Below are positions 1-28,875 of a stretch of DNA of 40,849 bases, one piece after another (position 1 is the stretch's first letter; each line of letters begins with the position of its first letter). The stretch spans positions 1 through 40,849 of the IMG/VR virus record IMGVR_UViG_2563366924_000005; one strand, given 5' to 3'. Both the position numbers and the translations under genes were made by a program. The DNA is from a virus (lineage: Duplodnaviria > Heunggongvirae > Uroviricota > Caudoviricetes). The notes beneath the pieces were generated by a model. The model was given only the letters and a program-made list of their open reading frames with translations. It searched no databases and was not told where the DNA came from.

Positions 1-933
1 ATGGACAACGACAAAATTGATCAACACAGCGACGAAATTGAAGTTGAGAGCGAAGAAAAAGAGCGCGGCAAAAAAATAGAAATAGATGAAGACCGACTCC
101 CCTCCCGGGCGATGGCAATTCATGAGCATATCCGCCAGGATGGTGAAAAAGAGCTGGAACGCGACGCAATGGCGCTACTGTGGTCAGCCATTGCGGCGGG
201 TCTGTCGATGGGCGCTTCGTTACTGGCAAAAGGGATATTTCATGTCGAACTGGAAGGTGTGCCGGGCAGCTTCTTACTGGAGAATCTCGGTTATACCTTT
301 GGTTTTATTATCGTCATAATGGCCCGCCAGCAATTATTTACCGAAAACACCGTGACTGCGGTACTACCCGTCATGCAAAAACCGACAATGAGCAACGTTG
401 GCTTACTTATGCGGTTATGGGGAGTCGTGCTGCTGGGTAATATTCTCGGGACTGGTATTGCTGCGTGGGCATTTGAATATATGCCTATCTTCAATGAAGA
501 AACTCGCGATGCATTTGTCAAAATCGGCATGGATGTGATGAAGAACACCCCCAGCGAGATGTTTGCCAACGCGATCATTTCCGGCTGGCTGATCGCCACT
601 ATGGTATGGATGTTTCCTGCAGCAGGTGCGGCAAAGATTGTGGTGATTATATTGATGACCTGGCTTATTGCCCTGGGTGACACCACCCATATCGTGGTCG
701 GTTCTGTTGAAATCCTCTATCTGGTGTTTAACGGTACGCTGCACTGGAGCGATTTCATCTGGCCCTTCGCACTACCTACTTTAGCGGGGAACATCTGCGG
801 CGGCACCTTTATCTTCGCGTTAATGAGTCATGCACAGATTCGTAACGACATGAGCAACAAGCGTAAAGCAGAAGCACGCCAAAAAGCAGAACGTGCGGAA
901 AACATTAAGAAAAATGATAAAAACCCGGCATAA
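1..933 (+). CDS. yfdC: Formate/nitrite-transporter-family inner membrane protein YfdC (host gene flanking argW)
   Basis: 310-aa ORF from window start with several hydrophobic helices; N-terminus MDNDKIDQHSDEIEVESEEKERGKK recognised from memory as E. coli YfdC; sits immediately upstream of tRNA-Arg as in E. coli. Confidence 0.8.
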   Translation: MDNDKIDQHSDEIEVESEEKERGKKIEIDEDRLPSRAMAIHEHIRQDGEKELERDAMALLWSAIAAGLSMGASLLAKGIFHVELEGVPGSFLLENLGYTFGFIIVIMARQQLFTENTVTAVLPVMQKPTMSNVGLLMRLWGVVLLGNILGTGIAAWAFEYMPIFNEETRDAFVKIGMDVMKNTPSEMFANAIISGWLIATMVWMFPAAGAAKIVVIILMTWLIALGDTTHIVVGSVEILYLVFNGTLHWSDFIWPFALPTLAGNICGGTFIFALMSHAQIRNDMSNKRKAEARQKAERAENIKKNDKNPA

Positions 934-1008: not shown

Positions 1009-1083
1009 GTCCTCTTAGTTAAATGGATATAACGAGCCCCTCCTAAGGGCTAATTGCAGGTTCGATTCCTGCAGGGGACACTA
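1009..1083 (+). tRNA. argW: tRNA-Arg (anticodon CCU), argW; integration target, forms attL
   Basis: Cloverleaf readable by eye: acceptor GTCCTCT/AGGGGAC, anticodon stem AGCCC/GGGCT with loop CTCCTAA (anticodon CCT), T-arm GCAGG-TTCGATT-CCTGC, discriminator A at 1080; the three bases after it (1081-1083) read CTA, not an encoded CCA. Confidence 0.85.
1054..1069. repeat. 16-nt segment of argW T-arm (ttgcaggttcgattcc), left copy of a direct repeat; candidate att core
   Basis: Exact 16/16 match to 40614-40629 (18/19 including one mismatch to the left); lies in the tRNA 3' half next to the integrase gene. Confidence 0.6.
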
Positions 1084-1244
1084 TTTATCAGTTCGCTCCC
1101 ATCCGTACCAGTACGCAAAATCCCCTGAATATCAAGCCTTCCGTAGATTCACAGTTCGTCATGGTTCGCTTCAGATCGTTGACAGCCGCACTCCGTGACG
1201 GGTAAAAAGTGGATAAAATAATTTTACCCACCGGATTTTTACCC

Positions 1245-2423
1245 ATGCTCACCGTTAAGCAGATTGAAGCAGCAAAGCCGAAAGAAAAACCATACCGCCT
1301 TCTCGATGGTAATGGCCTGTACCTTTATGTCCCTGTATCCGGGAAAAAGGTATGGCAGCTTCGCTACAAGATTGACGGTAAGGAGAAAATCCTGACTGTC
1401 GGAAAATATCCGCTTATGACTTTGCAGGAGGCAAGGGATAAAGCATGGACTGCGAGGAAAGACATCTCGGTTGGCATAGATCCGGTAAAAGCGAAAAAGG
1501 CTTCGTCTAACAACAATTCCTTTAGTGCCATTTACAAGGAATGGTACGAGCACAAGAAGCAAGTGTGGTCTGTAGGGTATGCGACTGAACTTGCCAAAAT
1601 GTTTGATGACGACATTTTACCCATCATCGGCGGTCTCGAGATTCTGGATATTGAGCCGATGCAACTGCTGGAAGTAATCCGCAGATTTGAAGATCGCGGT
1701 GCAATGGAGCGAGCCAACAAAGCCCGCAGAAGATGCGGCGAGGTTTTCCGTTACGCTATTGTCACTGGTAGGGCTAAATATAACCCGGCACCTGACCTTG
1801 CTGACGCCATGAAGGGATACCGCAAGAAAAACTTCCCGTTTCTTCCTGCAGACCAGATCCCGGCATTTAACAAAGCACTGGCAACATTTTCAGGAAGCAT
1901 CGTATCGCTCATTGCGACCAAAGTTTTACGCTACACAGCCCTAAGAACAAAAGAGCTTCGTTCCATGCTATGGAAGAACGTCGATTTTGAAAACAGGATT
2001 ATCACCATCGACGCCAGTGTGATGAAGGGACGCAAAATTCATGTGGTTCCTATGTCAGACCAGGTGGTTGAACTTCTCACTACGCTAAGCTCAATCACTA
2101 AACCAGTATCAGAGTTTGTTTTTGCCGGTCGCAACGATAAGAAGAAGCCAATCTGCGAGAACGCGGTATTGCTTGTGATCAAACAAATTGGCTATGAGGG
2201 TCTGGAAAGCGGTCACGGATTCAGGCATGAATTCAGCACGATTATGAACGAGCACGAATGGCCTGCTGATGCTATTGAAGTGCAACTGGCACATGCCAAC
2301 GGCGGATCTGTGCGCGGGATTTACAACCATGCTCGGTATCTCGATAAGCGCAGAGAAATGATGCAGTGGTGGGCGGACTGGCTTGATGAAAAGGTGGAGT
2401 GTTCCACCTTAACTATCGAATGA
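1245..2423 (+). CDS. intS: Tyrosine integrase, IntS-type (KplE1/CPS-53-like), transcribed away from argW
   Basis: ORF 1209-2423; from MLTVKQIEAAKPKEKPYRLLDGNGLYLYVPVSGKKVWQLRYKIDGKEK the protein matches my recollection of E. coli IntS; C-terminal HxxR...Y catalytic region (GHGFRHEF...RGIYNHARY); ATG at 1245 preferred, GTG at 1209 possible. Confidence 0.85.
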   Translation: MLTVKQIEAAKPKEKPYRLLDGNGLYLYVPVSGKKVWQLRYKIDGKEKILTVGKYPLMTLQEARDKAWTARKDISVGIDPVKAKKASSNNNSFSAIYKEWYEHKKQVWSVGYATELAKMFDDDILPIIGGLEILDIEPMQLLEVIRRFEDRGAMERANKARRRCGEVFRYAIVTGRAKYNPAPDLADAMKGYRKKNFPFLPADQIPAFNKALATFSGSIVSLIATKVLRYTALRTKELRSMLWKNVDFENRIITIDASVMKGRKIHVVPMSDQVVELLTTLSSITKPVSEFVFAGRNDKKKPICENAVLLVIKQIGYEGLESGHGFRHEFSTIMNEHEWPADAIEVQLAHANGGSVRGIYNHARYLDKRREMMQWWADWLDEKVECSTLTIE

Positions 2424-23623: not shown

Positions 23624-23960
23624 CGTCAACTCCCGCCTTTTTTGCTGCAAGTTTTTTAATAAGATTGCCGATCGAATCGGTGCCGATGTATCCAATAAAG
23701 ACGCTGGCTATGTAGGCGAGGTTGCTGCTCAGGCCGATAAAGTCCAGAAGGTCACGAACGAACCAGGCAATCATCGCGCACATCAGCGCATCAATTAGCG
23801 TTTTTGTTACCGCGCCGCCGTTATAGCGACCACGCAGATACGCCATGATAAAAGCCAGCATTGCACCAATACCCTGCTCCTTGGCGGCAAGTAGCGCAGC
23901 GATGAAATCTTGTTTGTATGGCAATTTTTTCTCCCTACGCCTGGCACGCGAATTGACCAT
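23607..23960 (-). CDS. Class I holin, lambda S-like
   Basis: ...[93 protein letters not shown] closely matches recalled lambda S. Confidence 0.8.
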
Positions 23961-24435
23961 GATATTTCCCCCTAAACTCTGAGATTACCAACTCAGCAAG
24001 TTCGAGATCATCGAAGTAACCCAACCAGATCTGCTTCTTATTTCTACTTCCGCAAACTCTCCATTTCCCATTCTTAACATCAAGCCTGACGCCCTTTATG
24101 GGATTCTTTCCTCCGGATGGTTTGCGTCTGTTATATTGATTTTCTGATTTGGTCGATAATCTGAGGTTTTTAATGCCATTGTTTAATGGGTTTCTATCTA
24201 AATGATCCACGTCCATTTCTGGCATGCATCCATATACATACAACCAAGCCAGCCGATGCTCTTTATAGATTTTCCCATCTATACGTATTTGCCTGTAACC
24301 AGATCCATTAATCGTTCCAGCTCTTGAGCCAACTTTAATTCTGCGATTGCTGGATTTAACCCAAGTAAAAACCCCTGAAACAGGATCATAGTGCATAAGG
24401 CTTTTCAGGACTTGCTGAGTGATTACCATTTTCAT
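23935..24435 (-). CDS. HNH homing-endonuclease-like protein (HNH plus AP2-type DNA-binding domain), copy 1
   Basis: Start MKMVITQQ with GGAGGTGA ribosome-binding site; motifs [24 protein letters not shown] and [12 protein letters not shown]; inserted between tRNA-Asn and holin; AT-rich. Confidence 0.75.
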
Positions 24436-24617
24436 AGGCCTCACCTCCGATTTTCCGGATGGTGCTGTGTGTGTTTGTAGGGGAAAGGCCGTCAGACTCT
24501 GATTGCTACATGGCATCTGAAAATGATATCTGCGGCCTGCAATAAAAAAGCCCACGGCGCGGTGGGCAATAGAGGGTAGTGCGTTGAGCTTTTGCTCTTA
24601 TGGTCCTGGTAGGTATT

Positions 24618-24692
24618 TGGCGGGACAGCGTGGACTCGAACCACGATAAGAAGGTTAACAGCCTTCCGTAATGACCTTTATACGACTGACCC
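24618..24692 (-). tRNA. tRNA-Asn-like gene (anticodon GTT) between Q and the lysis genes
   Basis: Minus-strand read GGGTCAG-TC-GTAT-AAAGGTCA-TTAC-G-GAAGG-CTGTTAA-CCTTC-TTAT-CGTGG-TTCGAGT-CCACG-CTGTCCC-G-CCA: perfect anticodon and T arms, U33, GG in D-loop, encoded CCA; one T-T mismatch each in acceptor and D stems; 4-nt variable loop. Confidence 0.5.
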
Positions 24693-24755
24693 AAATAAAA
24701 AAAGCCACCGTTGCAACTTAAGAGTCACTAACGGCAGCTTACCCTCTAATTATGG

Positions 24756-25274
24756 CTAAATGGCTAATTGCATGTCAAGGTTTTTAACAGCAACATGCTT
24801 AACTTTCTCAACACGTTTACGCATTTTGAAAGCATTTTGCATTGGTTGGTACAAAACAAATAATGACGCTTTCAGGATGTCGTCAATTTCATTTCTACAG
24901 GTTGCCAGTGAAGGTTTTCTCCATCCCTCGCCACCACGTCCACACATCTTGCGTGGCTTTGCAGTCGCGTGATAGTAGGATGCAATTGCTCGCTTAGATG
25001 AACCATGAGCGTAGTAGCTGAGGAGGATGCCAAAGGCTTTCTTGTCAATGTACATGACGGAATCGACGACCTGAGAAATCAACATTCCATCGTCATCATT
25101 ACACATTGGCCTTGTAATAACTCTTCCCGGCTCTACGCTCTCCATGAACTTCGCTATTACGCTGCTCATGCGCTTTTCCAGACGACCTGAATAAACCCAT
25201 GCGCCCCATAGTTCAAGCCATCCATTCAGCCAATCGTGCTGCTCTTTGGTGAGGTTTATTTCTCTTATGCTCAT
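24756..25274 (-). CDS. Late-gene antiterminator Q (QuuD-type)
   Basis: 172 aa; WLELWGAWV and CNDDDGMLIS motifs resemble QuuD-type Q proteins as I recall them; position just upstream of the lysis cassette and downstream of ninH/rusA. Confidence 0.65.
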   Translation of the reverse strand: MSIREINLTKEQHDWLNGWLELWGAWVYSGRLEKRMSSVIAKFMESVEPGRVITRPMCNDDDGMLISQVVDSVMYIDKKAFGILLSYYAHGSSKRAIASYYHATAKPRKMCGRGGEGWRKPSLATCRNEIDDILKASLFVLYQPMQNAFKMRKRVEKVKHVAVKNLDMQLAI

Positions 25275-25459
25275 CGTCTTCCCCTCTTGCCCTGTTTGAC
25301 CATCAGGACGCCGTTAACTATTACGTGACGCTCGCCTTTGCTGTCTCGGTTGTACTTAAGCACTGTTCCTCTTGCGCAGGAAAGCATCCTCGCCACTTCG
25401 GTCTGATTGCCTCGTGTCTGGATAAGAAGCTCTGGTATCGTTTGAATTGTGGCGTTCAT
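25271..25459 (-). CDS. ninH: NinH
   Basis: 62 aa; IQTIPELLIQTRGNQTEVARMLSCARGTVLKY..VIVNGVLMV matches recalled lambda NinH (VKTIPDMLVEAYGNQTEVARRLKCSRGTVRKY..AIVNDVLMV). Confidence 0.75.
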   Translation of the reverse strand: MNATIQTIPELLIQTRGNQTEVARMLSCARGTVLKYNRDSKGERHVIVNGVLMVKQGKRGRR

Positions 25460-25818
25460 GCGTTCTCCAGTTCGGTGATTTTTATTCCAAGCCTTCCGCC
25501 TGGTACTTTCACACCACGAATTACGCGAATGTCATCGAATTGCTCGTCGTCTTCCGCAAATCCGGCGTGGATAAGGGAGTCGAGTAAACCTTTCAGGATG
25601 TTGTCGAGGTCACGGCGGCGGGAGTCTGGAACGTCTGCGATGACTTTGATGCGGAGTCGTGATTTGGTGAAAATGTCTAACTTAAGTTGGCGGATGATTT
25701 GCTGAACGTCTTTTCGGTATTTCTGGCCTTTATCGCTGATGTAGTATTGGCTTCCCCGTCTTCGCCAGTAGGTGTTCAGCGACGGTGGGTACGGAAGTGT
25801 GAATCTGTATTCTGCCAT
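25456..25818 (-). CDS. rusA: RusA-family Holliday-junction resolvase
   Basis: 120 aa; LPYPPSLNTYW...VPDSRRRDLDNILKGLLDSLIHAGF..DDEQ...GGRLGIKITEL matches the RusA pattern (PDRRRRDLDNL). Confidence 0.8.
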   Translation of the reverse strand: MAEYRFTLPYPPSLNTYWRRRGSQYYISDKGQKYRKDVQQIIRQLKLDIFTKSRLRIKVIADVPDSRRRDLDNILKGLLDSLIHAGFAEDDEQFDDIRVIRGVKVPGGRLGIKITELENA

Positions 25819-26343
25819 TTATCCTCTCCCATGATTATGGTGATACCCCAATCGTGATTCCGCCAATTTTCTGGCATTAACGGCTAGAGATATGTCATCG
25901 TATAATCCAAGAAATATCTTTTTATTATCACTGTTTATATATGCGCCCCACTTTTTATTCTTCTTATAGTAGGCAACACCCATTACTCCAGAGCGATTAT
26001 TAATAGGCTTTTTTCTGTTCCTTGAGTTCTGTTTATCATCTACAACGCGCAAATTGCATATTCTGTTATCGCTTTTAATTCCATTTATGTGGTCAATTTC
26101 CCCATCAGGTTCTCTTCCATAAAAGGATATCCATGCGATTCTATGAGCTCGACAAACTTTTTTATTTACAGATATACGAACGTATCCTTTTTCATCTATA
26201 GAACCAGCAATCTTACCGGCATATGTTGAATTCCAGCACTCTCTTACACTTTCTCTTCTTTTGTATATAAACAAACCTGTTTCGCTATTATATTCATACA
26301 ATTCATTGATTTCTTTTTGTGTTGGATATCTTTTGCCGTTCAT
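25819..26343 (-). CDS. HNH homing-endonuclease-like protein (HNH plus AP2-type domain), copy 2
   Basis: 174 aa; GYVRISVNKKVCRAHRIAWISFYG and EIDHINGIKSDN motifs; same architecture as 23935-24435; very AT-rich; abuts rusA and the upstream gene with no spacer. Confidence 0.75.
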   Translation of the reverse strand: MNGKRYPTQKEINELYEYNSETGLFIYKRRESVRECWNSTYAGKIAGSIDEKGYVRISVNKKVCRAHRIAWISFYGREPDGEIDHINGIKSDNRICNLRVVDDKQNSRNRKKPINNRSGVMGVAYYKKNKKWGAYINSDNKKIFLGLYDDISLAVNARKLAESRLGYHHNHGRG

Positions 26344-26630
26344 GACTTAATCTTCCCCTCCTTCAGCAGTATCGCCTGCGTCCTGATCACGCCTTCGAGG
26401 TGGTAAAGTCTGGCGTCTTTGTTGTCGAGATTATGGGTGCGTCGGTCGATCTCCGCGTGGCAGTCACTACAAGCCCATGCGCCGATCAGGTCGTCAGGCT
26501 TCATTCCCGTTCCGCAAATTCCAGCCATCCGGTAATGTGCCAGAACTGTAGTTTCAGGATTACCATTGCATACGCCGTAAATACGTACCTGGCATTCTCT
26601 GCAGCGTGCTTCTTTGCGTAGGTTAGCCAT
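26340..26630 (-). CDS. Nin-region cysteine-rich (putative zinc-binding) protein
   Basis: 96 aa with CxxC...C...CxxC...H pattern (RCRECQ, GVCNG, CSDCH); a family commonly found in lambdoid nin regions; exact family unverified. Confidence 0.45.
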   Translation of the reverse strand: MANLRKEARCRECQVRIYGVCNGNPETTVLAHYRMAGICGTGMKPDDLIGAWACSDCHAEIDRRTHNLDNKDARLYHLEGVIRTQAILLKEGKIKS

Positions 26631-27352
26631 TAAGCAGCCTCACCGGTTACTTTCAGCATTCCGTTATCGAGCAGCTTTCTGGTCAGCCACTGTTGACCAC
26701 GCCCGGTGATTTTTGTGGTGAACGATATCTGTATTCCGTGATTTGTATTGACCGCTGTTTCTTTCACTGCGAAATAGCCGCGATCCATATATTCCTGCAT
26801 TGGCACATTGCGCCGGGAACCTGAAGCAATAAGGATTTTGTGATCGCGCATCCACGCAAACAGTTTGTTTGGACCAATTCCAACAACCTTTGCAAAGTTT
26901 CCAATCAAAATTCCGCTGGCCTCGCCAACGCGATCGGCAAACTCAACTTTAGGTGCGGCAATTGCGAGCTGGTTTTCCAGTTGCATTTTCTGCTCAGCAA
27001 GGTCAGCAGCAAGGCGCAACGCTTCCGGTAGCGTTTTTGGGATATTAACCGCAGCTTCTTCAAGCTCTCGCCAACGGTCAACAAGGCGAGCGGTGAACTC
27101 TGGCGACAACTGGGCAACAACGACAATACTGTCTCGCTTACCTTGTTCGCCCTCGAAGACGTAATGCTCGTACTGAACATTGAACCCTAAGTTATTGATT
27201 CTTTCGGAAACCTCAATTTGAGGAAGCCGGATAACACCATTTTTAGCCAGCGTTTCGATGGTACGTTTCACATTGTCATGACGCTTACCCACCAACTCAG
27301 CGATTTCAATGCTTGTCATTTTGATGGCATTGCCATTTATTAACTCATTCAT
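26630..27352 (-). CDS. Rha/Roi-family regulatory protein with antirepressor-like C-terminal domain
   Basis: 240 aa; N-terminal MTSIEIAELVGKRHDNVKRTIETL resembles the phage Rha HTH domain; C-terminal part resembles a KilA-C/Ant-type domain; nin-region position. Confidence 0.65.
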   Translation of the reverse strand: MNELINGNAIKMTSIEIAELVGKRHDNVKRTIETLAKNGVIRLPQIEVSERINNLGFNVQYEHYVFEGEQGKRDSIVVVAQLSPEFTARLVDRWRELEEAAVNIPKTLPEALRLAADLAEQKMQLENQLAIAAPKVEFADRVGEASGILIGNFAKVVGIGPNKLFAWMRDHKILIASGSRRNVPMQEYMDRGYFAVKETAVNTNHGIQISFTTKITGRGQQWLTRKLLDNGMLKVTGEAA

Positions 27353-27557
27353 CGTCTTCTTCCTCGTACATTGAGCTATTCGGATCGCTCATCAGTTCTG
27401 CGCAGCACGCTTCACACACGTGAACTTCCAGCACATGCAGCTTCTGACCGCAGTTAGCGCACGTTAAAGCCCGCTCGACGCTTTCTTGTTCGTAACTTCG
27501 ATTTGGGTCAATCACCTTGTATTCCTCGCACGATTTCTTAGCCACCGGATATCCCAC
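27345..27557 (-). CDS. ninF: NinF-like protein
   Basis: [37 protein letters not shown] matches recalled NinF; true start may be internal because the ORF overlaps ninE. Confidence 0.6.
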
Positions 27558-27694
27558 AGGTGAGCCGTGTAGTTGAAGGTTTTTACGTCAGATTCTTTTG
27601 GGATTGGCTTGCGTTTATTTCTGGAGCGTTTCGTTGGAAGGTATTTGCAGTTTTCGCAGATGATGTCGGTGATACTTCGTCGCTGTCGTCTCAT
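27512..27694 (-). CDS. ninE: NinE
   Basis: From [52 protein letters not shown] matches recalled lambda NinE; start taken at the internal ATG of ORF 27512-27784. Confidence 0.7.
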
Positions 27695-28218
27695 GCCGCC
27701 CTCCTGACGCCCTGCCAGATCGCCATCAATGCCGCTTTGGATACGGTAGTAAACATCCGTCGAGGACTGATAAACGGTCGCCAAATCAGCAGCATGGAGC
27801 CTTTGCTGTTTCCCTTCTTCTCCAGCCCTGTCGATGGTTCGATAAAATTAATCCGTCCATCAGTGATAATGCGAACTTCGTCGACACTCTCCAGAGCCTT
27901 GCTGAACCATCCGACTGACATATCCTCTGGCACAAGCATAACTACCGTCTGTCGCTGTTGTATGCACTGCTCAGCGGCTTTTTCCACCCACGGCCTGATA
28001 TTGCTGTACGGTGGGTTATTCCAGATTGCACCGTGGCTTATCCACTCAGAATTTAGCGCGTCGTCAGCCTCAGTTAGCCAGTGAGCGCACAGAGCATTTT
28101 TGTCGCTCGCTGCCGAATCCAGCCAGAATCCAAACTCAATATCCAGTGCATCAAAAAGCCAAAGCGGCGTTTGCCAGCAGTCCTTGTCGTGTGCTGGCGT
28201 ATTTGATTTGATAGTCAT
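27691..28218 (-). CDS. Orphan DNA N6-adenine methyltransferase (phage Dam-like)
   Basis: ORF 27691-28245; NPPY motif (WNNPPYS) typical of N6-adenine/N4-cytosine methyltransferases; no adjacent restriction gene; nin-region position. Confidence 0.7.
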
Positions 28219-28661
28219 GCAGCCTTCCCTTTTCGTTGTGACCATTCATACTCTCGCCGGGAGTCATCACTCCATCGCACGTTGCGCTCTGAGCCGAACC
28301 AGAACATGATTTCGATAAGCTCAGTCATGTTGGCCTTTCGCATTTTGCTGGTACGCACGCCAAGCATGACAACGCCACCATCGATACCAGGCACACTTCG
28401 TTGCTCCAGTTTTTTGGTCTTAAGCCACAGGGCAGTGAACAGGTCTTTCCAGTCTTCCGGCGCCAGCCGTTGACCATGCCATAGCACCTGACGCGAAACA
28501 TCGTTCAGCATCGGCCACATACGGTCATTCTGCGCTTTGCTGCGTTTGGGTTCTCTAACGTGGACTTCGTGGGGTGACTTGTCGTCGATGGGTAGTGAGA
28601 GTATTGCGTCTATGGCGTTATTTCTGATTGCTTCGTTGCGAAGCATGTATATTTGCTTCAT
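28215..28661 (-). CDS. ninB: NinB (Orf-family recombination mediator)
   Basis: ORF 28215-28679; ...RSKAQNDRMWPMLNDVSRQVLWHGQRLAPEDWKDLFTA...SKMRKANMTELIEIMFWFGSERNVRWSD matches recalled lambda NinB (..QNRKLWACLGDVSRQVEWHGRWLDAESWKCVFTA..). Confidence 0.75.
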   Translation of the reverse strand: MKQIYMLRNEAIRNNAIDAILSLPIDDKSPHEVHVREPKRSKAQNDRMWPMLNDVSRQVLWHGQRLAPEDWKDLFTALWLKTKKLEQRSVPGIDGGVVMLGVRTSKMRKANMTELIEIMFWFGSERNVRWSDDSRREYEWSQRKGKAA

Positions 28662-28668
28662 CGTTACC

Positions 28669-28875
28669 TCAACTAACAAAACGCCACGCCATTTTTGCTA
28701 CAGCGACAGGCATAACACCGATAATCACCCAGACAAATGCAGCGCCAAACAACGTATACCATGGGTCTTTACCGTCATTCACAAGACGAATGTAGCTATG
28801 CAGAACAATAAAAAACGTCAGAAGAATCCATCCAACGCCAACGCATTTGAGTGCGACGAGCATAAACTCAGCCAC
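28669..28875 (-). CDS. Small membrane protein (about 65 aa, two TM helices)
   Basis: Hydrophobic segments GVGWILLTFFIVL and FGAAFVWVIIGVMPVAV; start is GTG 28875 or ATG 28863. Confidence 0.4.
   Translation of the reverse strand: MAEFMLVALKCVGVGWILLTFFIVLHSYIRLVNDGKDPWYTLFGAAFVWVIIGVMPVAVAKMAWRFVS

Follow-up and report, generated by a model that had tools for sequence, protein, structure and literature searches.

M.EcoVT2Dam, the product of orf32 of the Stx2 phage VT2-Sakai (NP_050531), is an orphan DNA adenine methyltransferase (MTase) of 175 amino acids (aa), and its gene occupies the slot between ninB and ninE with 4-nt overlaps. The same gene is also found in 933W-type, Phi24B, HK97, Nil2, and mEp213 phages. 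Its target is 5'-GATC-3' according to the passage of PMC6602927 that cites Radlinska & Bujnicki 2001. Here we describe a close counterpart of this gene in a prophage from IMG/VR (record IMGVR_UViG_2563366924_000005, positions 1 to 40,849; this entire stretch of 40,849 nt is called the window). The window is a P22-like (Lederbergvirus-like) prophage, kin of CUS-3, phiv205-1, and Kapi1, integrated at tRNA-Arg(CCT) (argW, 1009..1081). We estimate a probability of about 0.85 that the gene, called dam below, is predicted correctly as a PF05869 MTase specific for GATC.

More distant relatives have been described in other phages. The Dam proteins of HP1/HP2 and of T1 belong to the same Pfam family, PF05869 (E = 1e-73 and 2e-70), and are small solitary enzymes encoded in the early or replication regions of phage genomes. 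They share with the window protein the motifs D-W-TP, LD-A, W-NPPYS, MLL-D-S-WF, and R-FI-TG-N-K, but they differ from it in genomic context and in overall identity, which is 35-38% for HP2 Dam and 33-34% for T1 Dam, the latter having in addition a 45-residue N-terminal extension and an internal insertion. The specificity of T1 Dam is GATC, and the HP2 dam record is annotated as [quoted passage not shown] M.Phi93DAM, from the lactococcal 936-type phage Phi93, is likewise a PF05869 protein (E = 6e-34, 33% identity), with NPPY as its sole recognised classical motif; it differs in its length (140 aa) and in its setting, the packaging module of a virulent phage of a Gram-positive host, beside a homing endonuclease. 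M.Phi93DAM makes G6mATC and protects against DpnII, as seen when DNA of phage and plasmids was digested with DpnI/DpnII and in single-molecule real-time (SMRT) sequencing (PMC4190342).

Identity of the gene and its translational start

The gene and its immediate surroundings are as follows.

27691..28218, minus strand: dam-like gene for a 175-aa phage N-6-adenine DNA methyltransferase, an allele of M.EcoVT2Dam (PF05869/TIGR01712; protein WP_001549467.1)
28215..28679, minus strand: ninB (PF05772), an Orf-family recombination mediator, directly upstream of dam, with its TGA stop overlapping the dam ATG as ATGA
27512..27694, minus strand: ninE (PF05322), directly downstream of dam, with its ATG overlapping the dam TGA stop as ATGA at 27691..27694
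28223..28231, minus strand: Shine-Dalgarno-like sequence AAGGGAAGG, 4 nt 5' of the dam ATG and within the 3' end of ninB

The open reading frame (ORF) is uninterrupted and consists of 175 codons and a stop. Its product matches Pfam PF05869, “DNA N-6-adenine-methyltransferase (Dam),” at E = 1.1e-63 and 214.4 bits (cut-off 28.1) over profile positions 1-164 of 169, and the NCBIfam equivalog TIGR01712, “phage N-6-adenine-methyltransferase” (phage_N6A_met), at 262 bits (cut-off 97.05) over positions 1-164 of 165. Both matches are far beyond chance. When compared with VT2-Sakai orf32, 173 of the 175 residues (99%) are identical, and the two substitutions (I60V and W167G) both fall outside the conserved motifs; the carriers differ as well, since M.EcoVT2Dam sits in a Stx2 phage and the window gene in a P22-like prophage at argW.

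The exact 175-aa sequence is already present in NCBI as WP_001549467.1, “phage N-6-adenine-methyltransferase [Escherichia coli],” and its cluster at 90% identity contains 1929 members from E. coli and Salmonella. At a nucleotide identity of at least 95%, the gene was found in 1562 of 5426 complete E. coli genomes (~29%), in up to five copies each, and RefSeq names it there as a phage N-6-adenine-methyltransferase with NinB and NinE on either side. It is also present at an identity of at least 95% in 244 phage records, including VT2-Sakai and mEp213. The gene is thus already known and annotated by standard pipelines, and has a characterised near-identical counterpart.

An alternative in-frame ATG at 28245 would give a protein of 184 aa and has been chosen in some phage records, e.g., mEp213, but it falls within ninB. 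The ATG at 28218 appears to be the better choice, because the hidden Markov models (HMMs) of both families start at residue 2-4 of the 175-aa form, because homologues in Pectobacterium, Buttiauxella, Edwardsiella, and other genera are 175 aa long and alignable from M1, and because this ATG is preceded by the Shine-Dalgarno-like sequence and shares ATGA (28215..28218) with the ninB stop. The same evidence upholds the start at 28218 used in an earlier note on this DNA. A plus-strand antisense ORF (27560..28084, 174 aa) is without a family match and was taken as spurious.

Target site

GATC is the expected target of the window enzyme because it shares 99% of its residues with an enzyme for which GATC specificity is reported, in the source passage named above, and because distant relatives are also tied to GATC. 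The earlier note had called the enzyme “Dam-like” and its target site unknown. The second statement is contradicted by the near identity to M.EcoVT2Dam, to the extent of that passage, and by the product of M.Phi93DAM; the first is apt for the target and not for the family, as no match to PF02086 was found and the fold predicted for the protein is nearer to the gamma class. As judged from these sequence relationships, GATC can be assigned confidently, and the gene should not be counted among the MTases of unknown specificity.

Enzyme class and predicted structure

Three conserved segments are referred to in this section.

28165..28176, minus strand: codons of W-Q-T-P (residues 15-18), part of the conserved N-terminal D-x-W-x-T-P; W15, T17, and P18 are common to VT2, HP2, and T1 Dam
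28105..28122, minus strand: codons of L-D-S-A-A-S (residues 33-38), predicted strand beta1; L33 and D34 are invariant, and residues 33-35 form a strand in the model
28006..28017, minus strand: codons of NPPY (residues 68-71), which is catalytic motif IV of amino-methyltransferases and recurs unchanged in 43 homologues and in the Dam proteins of HP2, T1, and VT2

Across the 43 aligned homologues, the window protein keeps NPPY and 45 further invariant positions. The conserved positions that it has in common with VT2, HP2, and T1 Dam are D13-x-W15-x-T17-P18, L33-D34-x-x-A37, and W66-x-N68-P69-P70-Y71-S72 and, further on, M94-L95...D99-x-S101...W104-F105 and the C-terminal segment R122...F125-I126...T130-G131...N137-x-K139. 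The earlier note had recognised an N6-adenine amino-methyltransferase by its NPPY motif, and residues 68-71 together with both family matches bear this out. The W-Q-T-P segment of D-x-W-x-T-P appears to resemble the “xxTP” that precedes motif I in gamma-class N6-adenine MTases, and the region L33-S38 is presumed to be the equivalent of motif I, which binds S-adenosylmethionine (AdoMet). A TP motif, motif I, and NPPY ~30 residues on, with no inserted domain, would be the order of the gamma class.

The AlphaFold2 (AF2) model consists of one alpha/beta domain, with no separate target-recognition domain within its 175 aa, in keeping with PF05869, whose proteins are small and single-domain (~140-240 aa). 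At E<=0.01 the only Pfam match of the protein is PF05869, and none was found to PF02086, the family of canonical Dam. A phmmer search against all PDB sequences (EcoDam, T4Dam, and DpnM included) gave no match, and a Foldseek search of the model against the PDB gave none at E<=1e-3; PF05869 is therefore a family without a solved close relative. Canonical Dam enzymes score lower (EcoDam 6.3, with 99 residues aligned; DpnM 5.7; T4Dam 5.6), and the predicted fold is closer to the gamma class (M.TaqI, HsdM) than to EcoDam or T4Dam. The alpha-class enzymes EcoDam, T4Dam, and DpnM (PF02086) have a target-recognition domain between the AdoMet-binding motifs and motif IV, whereas the window protein is without such an insertion. 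The gamma-class enzymes M.TaqI, M.BseCI, type I HsdM, and CamA are 380-610 aa long and have a large C-terminal recognition domain or a separate specificity subunit; the window protein, at 11-15% sequence identity to these 2-3 times larger neighbours, corresponds to the catalytic core alone.

Taken at the level of sequence, the window enzyme is a functional analogue of host Dam from an unrelated sequence family. Phage enzymes called “Dam-like” belong to at least three unrelated families (alpha-class Dam, PF05869, and MT-A70), and their behaviours differ. The conserved hairpin region R122-K139 is a candidate for the part that reads GATC in a core without a recognition domain, a matter that concerns the whole PF05869 family and is not special to this locus.

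An optional cassette between ninB and ninE

The ninB and ninE genes flank dam, which upholds the placement of the gene in the nin region by the earlier note. In phiv205-1, a dam-less relative, ninE comes directly after ninB, and these two genes likewise share an ATGA. When phiv205-1 31890..32473 is aligned with window 27512..28679, homology sets in again precisely where the Shine-Dalgarno sequence and start codon of ninE lie. Judging from this alignment, dam is an optional cassette with clean boundaries, in a slot of lambdoid nin regions that is known to vary, and this explains its spread across Stx, HK97-like, mEp, and P22-like phages.

No restriction endonuclease gene is found beside dam, the neighbours being NinB, NinE, NinF, Ant/Rha, YbcO, an HNH_3 homing-type nuclease, and RusA, and the top PADLOC model for the protein is “orphan methyltransferase” (oMTase). 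Orphan status, also proposed earlier, is upheld by these neighbours, by the PADLOC model, and by the HNH genes of the prophage, which are unlinked to dam.

Public gene calls include fusions of dam with NinE, CII, RusA, or NinB domains. Such records probably arose as artefacts of frameshifts or of assembly, which the ATGA overlaps at the gene junctions favour.

Transcription of the nin region

The features that bear on the transcription of dam, and the three HNH ORFs of the prophage, are the following.

32525..32554, minus strand: match to a pR-like promoter, from which dam is presumably transcribed; the cro-like, cII, replication, and nin genes lie downstream of it
28889..28922, minus strand: intrinsic-terminator-like GC-rich hairpin upstream of ninB, AGGCCTGC...GCAGGCCT followed by the T-run TTTTATTT
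32568..33269, plus strand: cI-like repressor gene
33762..34094, plus strand: N-type antiterminator gene (PF11438 N36), required if transcription is to continue into the nin region
31048..31848, minus strand: HNH ORF of 266 aa between cII and the replication initiator gene, with weak PADLOC matches to PtuB and to a type II restriction endonuclease (REase) model
25819..26343, minus strand: HNH_3 homing-endonuclease-like ORF between YbcO and RusA
23935..24555, minus strand: homing-endonuclease-like ORF with HNH_3 and AP2 domains, just downstream of a terminator-like hairpin (24567..24550) and beside tRNA-Asn

Along the minus strand, the pR-like site is followed by a cro-like helix-turn-helix (HTH) gene, cII (31870..32223), an HNH gene, the replication initiator, and a DnaC/IstB-like loader, and then by two small ORFs, ninB, dam, ninE, ninF, an Ant/Rha antirepressor, YbcO, the HNH_3 ORF, RusA, and Q (24756..25274). 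Within 24500..33500, the minus-strand matches to the promoter consensus are just the pR-like site and one at 24778..24749, which we read as a putative pR'-like promoter; among these matches there is none directly before dam, from 24778 to 32525. The hairpin at 28922..28899, upstream of ninB, occupies the place of lambda tR2, and antitermination would therefore be needed to reach ninB-dam-ninE.

Delayed-early, antitermination-dependent expression in lytic growth is predicted for dam because it has no promoter-like site of its own, it overlaps its neighbours by ATGA, a tR2-like hairpin precedes ninB, and an N gene is present. The gene would belong to a delayed-early rightward operon that runs from pR through cro, cII, the replication genes, and the tR2-like terminator to ninB-dam-ninE and on to Q, and it would be reached only after N antitermination. 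The ATGA overlap at either end of dam points to translational coupling with ninB and ninE. In such an arrangement dam would not be a lysogenic-conversion gene. In Phi24B, the expression of CM2, which is 100% identical to NP_050531, follows a profile linked to the lytic cycle in quantitative PCR (qPCR) (PMC3342100).

Proposed role and alternatives

The window enzyme, a small solitary N6-adenine MTase, would methylate the adenine of GATC, the same mark that host Dam makes, and catalysis would proceed with AdoMet and the NPPY loop on a Rossmann-type fold. Lytic phage DNA synthesis would outpace the limited host Dam, and the phage enzyme would top up GATC methylation, such that packaged DNA is fully methylated. 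In the next host, full methylation would protect against GATC restriction enzymes that are sensitive to methylation (DpnII/MboI type), and it would also block MutH cutting at unmethylated GATC during replication and recombination. We give this combination of kinetic top-up and protection a probability of about 0.5 as the role of dam.

Host Dam leaves the virion DNA of lambda, P22, and L under-methylated, apparently because methylation does not keep pace with replication (PMC3299994, PMC8022706), and phage Dam has been proposed to secure full methylation in massive replication, thereby avoiding MutHLS cleavage (PMC8541194; Deschavanne & Radman 1991, cited in PMC5014478). Counter-selection of GATC by MutH in enterobacteriophages is described in PMC5014478 and PMC8541194. 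In the window, GATC is the most depleted 4-bp palindrome, with 96 sites observed where a second-order Markov model predicts 188 +/- 14 (observed/expected [O/E] 0.51, z = -6.6).

Several points weigh against the proposed role and the analysis behind it. The gene is dispensable, being absent from phiv205-1 and presumably from lambda also. GATC is equally depleted in the dam-less phiv205-1 (O/E 0.46, compared with 0.51 in the window; a weak test, as the two genomes share much sequence), and carrying dam has brought no visible easing of GATC avoidance. The promoters and terminators were called from consensus matches only, and the AF2 model is of moderate confidence, with a pLDDT of 74 and a poor stretch at residues 36-70. 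PMC7556043 describes the biological role of phage Dam enzymes as “still not well understood,” and the role of a phage GATC methylase in a dam+ host is a matter general to the PF05869 family.

The alternative that survives best, although we consider it unlikely, is that the enzyme is active in lysogeny and alters host or prophage expression, or lysogen stability, through GATC methylation, e.g., at sites that are protected from host Dam. Host Dam is reported to be essential for stable 933W lysogeny, the authors of the Phi24B study speculated that phage Dam supplements host Dam, and the Phi24B Dam protein was detected immunologically in lysogen cultures (PMC3342100). However, qPCR of the Phi24B gene tracked the lytic cycle, and the signal in lysogen cultures was attributed to spontaneously induced cells (PMC3342100). 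The window gene has no promoter-like site in front, is joined to its neighbours by ATGA overlaps on both sides, and lies beyond the terminator-like hairpin upstream of ninB; furthermore, in lysogens with copies of the dam gene, ~99.9% of GATC sites are methylated by host Dam (PMC6602927). The label “epigenetic cargo,” given in the earlier note, is thus doubtful for the lysogen in view of the overlapping neighbours, the lack of an own promoter-like site, and the lytic-cycle expression in Phi24B, and dam is probably silent in stable lysogens. A comparison of methylation between a lysogen and a cured strain in a dam+ host would most probably be uninformative, with no change expected even for an active enzyme, because ~99.9% of GATC sites are already methylated, because SMRT sequencing is unable to tell Dam homologues apart (PMC6602927), and because dam is probably silent.

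Somewhat less probable again is that the enzyme has a partner protein, or that it prefers intermediates of replication or recombination (single-stranded or hemimethylated DNA); the GATC activity of the over-expressed VT2 enzyme would then be only part of the picture. This reading arises because the protein has no recognition domain and because the gene sits in a recombination cluster, with NinB/Orf upstream and YbcO and RusA downstream, and overlaps ninB and ninE by ATGA. If true, dam would control the access of MutH/MutL to phage recombinants and would not merely duplicate host Dam.

We regard it as improbable that the enzyme has a different or additional substrate, i.e., another DNA motif, adenines with little specificity, or RNA, as is the case for other phage “Dam” annotations. 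The precedents come from other families, and the window protein matches neither of them. A prophage “DNA adenine MTase” was found to be a 16S rRNA methyltransferase (NAR 2023 report); it was rejected as a model for the window gene, as it is an MT-A70/DPPW protein at another locus. The MT-A70-type phage “Dam” enzymes (M.EcoGV and M.EcoPA8orf6770P, the latter being the rRNA methyltransferase) have DPPW, an MT-A70 domain, and a partner encoded upstream, whereas the window protein has NPPY and no MT-A70 Pfam match; the M.EcoPA8orf6770P gene is found elsewhere in Stx prophages, as gp5, and gp6/PNB-2 is upstream of it. Hia5, Hin1523, and Nme1821 are non-specific adenine MTases of ~280 aa, kin of the Dam family (EcoDam/DpnM/T4Dam), with DPPY and FxGxG (PMC3299994). 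Neither FxGxG nor DPPY is present in the window protein, which has no Pfam match besides PF05869. Hia5 and Hin1523 had been considered as relatives of HP1 Dam and were dropped, being ~280-aa DPPY proteins of a different family (PMC3299994). Foldseek gives only a weak match to PCIF1 (E = 0.03), which stems from the amino-MTase core common to both proteins. Against a departure from GATC stand the 99% identity to M.EcoVT2Dam, reported as GATC-specific in the passage cited above, and the G6mATC product of M.Phi93DAM from the same family.

It is very improbable that dam is an inactive, decaying relic: prophage genes often decay, and truncated and fused versions of dam are present in databases, but the 175-aa frame is full length, retains by definition all positions invariant in the 43 aligned homologues, and has merely two substitutions relative to the characterised enzyme, outside the conserved motifs, and the gene is highly conserved across the 1562 E. 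coli genomes. Finally, that dam supplies the methylase for a restriction-modification or other defence system in which one of the three HNH nucleases of the prophage is its partner (31048..31848 being the one with weak REase and PtuB matches), is effectively refuted because dam and the HNH gene do not co-occur, on which ground that ORF was rejected as the cognate nuclease: none of the three adjoins dam, the two HNH_3 ORFs resemble homing endonucleases, the same dam is found between ninB and ninE in VT2-Sakai, mEp213, and hundreds of further phages that lack these HNH genes, and the 266-aa protein (at least 99% identity) occurs in only 3 phage records, compared with 244 (at least 95%) for dam.

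Other features of the prophage

The 3 records with the 266-aa HNH protein are Louie, Dewey, and one Stx1a phage, and relatives with 52% identity occur in Pseudomonas phages. The presence of three HNH genes in a single 40-kb prophage is unusual.

The left junction lies within the window, where a host gene of the formate/nitrite-transporter family (1..933) is followed by tRNA-Arg(CCT) (1009..1081) and a tyrosine integrase (1209..2423). The tRNA-Arg(CCT) gene is the attachment site, and the phiv205-1 record has attL annotated at the equivalent position, 1069..1085. The genes for morphogenesis are of the P22 type, as is also the case in CUS-3, phiv205-1, and Kapi1.

Two small minus-strand ORFs lie on either side of the tR2-like terminator. 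The one at 28669..28875 encodes a hydrophobic product of 68 aa with no family match, and the one at 28966..29256 a product of 96 aa with a sub-threshold match to a MarR-type HTH. The replication-initiator gene (30149..31045) holds two perfect tandem 21-mers, AAGGGAATCAGGAATCAGGTT, at 30503..30544, and three copies of a 47-nt unit with GCACTGTACTTGCATGGTGC at 30569..30720 (62-81% identity to the reference copy). These direct repeats may be origin iterons, like those in the lambda O gene. A tRNA-Asn(GTT) gene (24618..24692, minus strand) is located between Q with the putative pR' region and the lysis genes, and tRNA genes (and stx) occupy the same slot in Stx phages.

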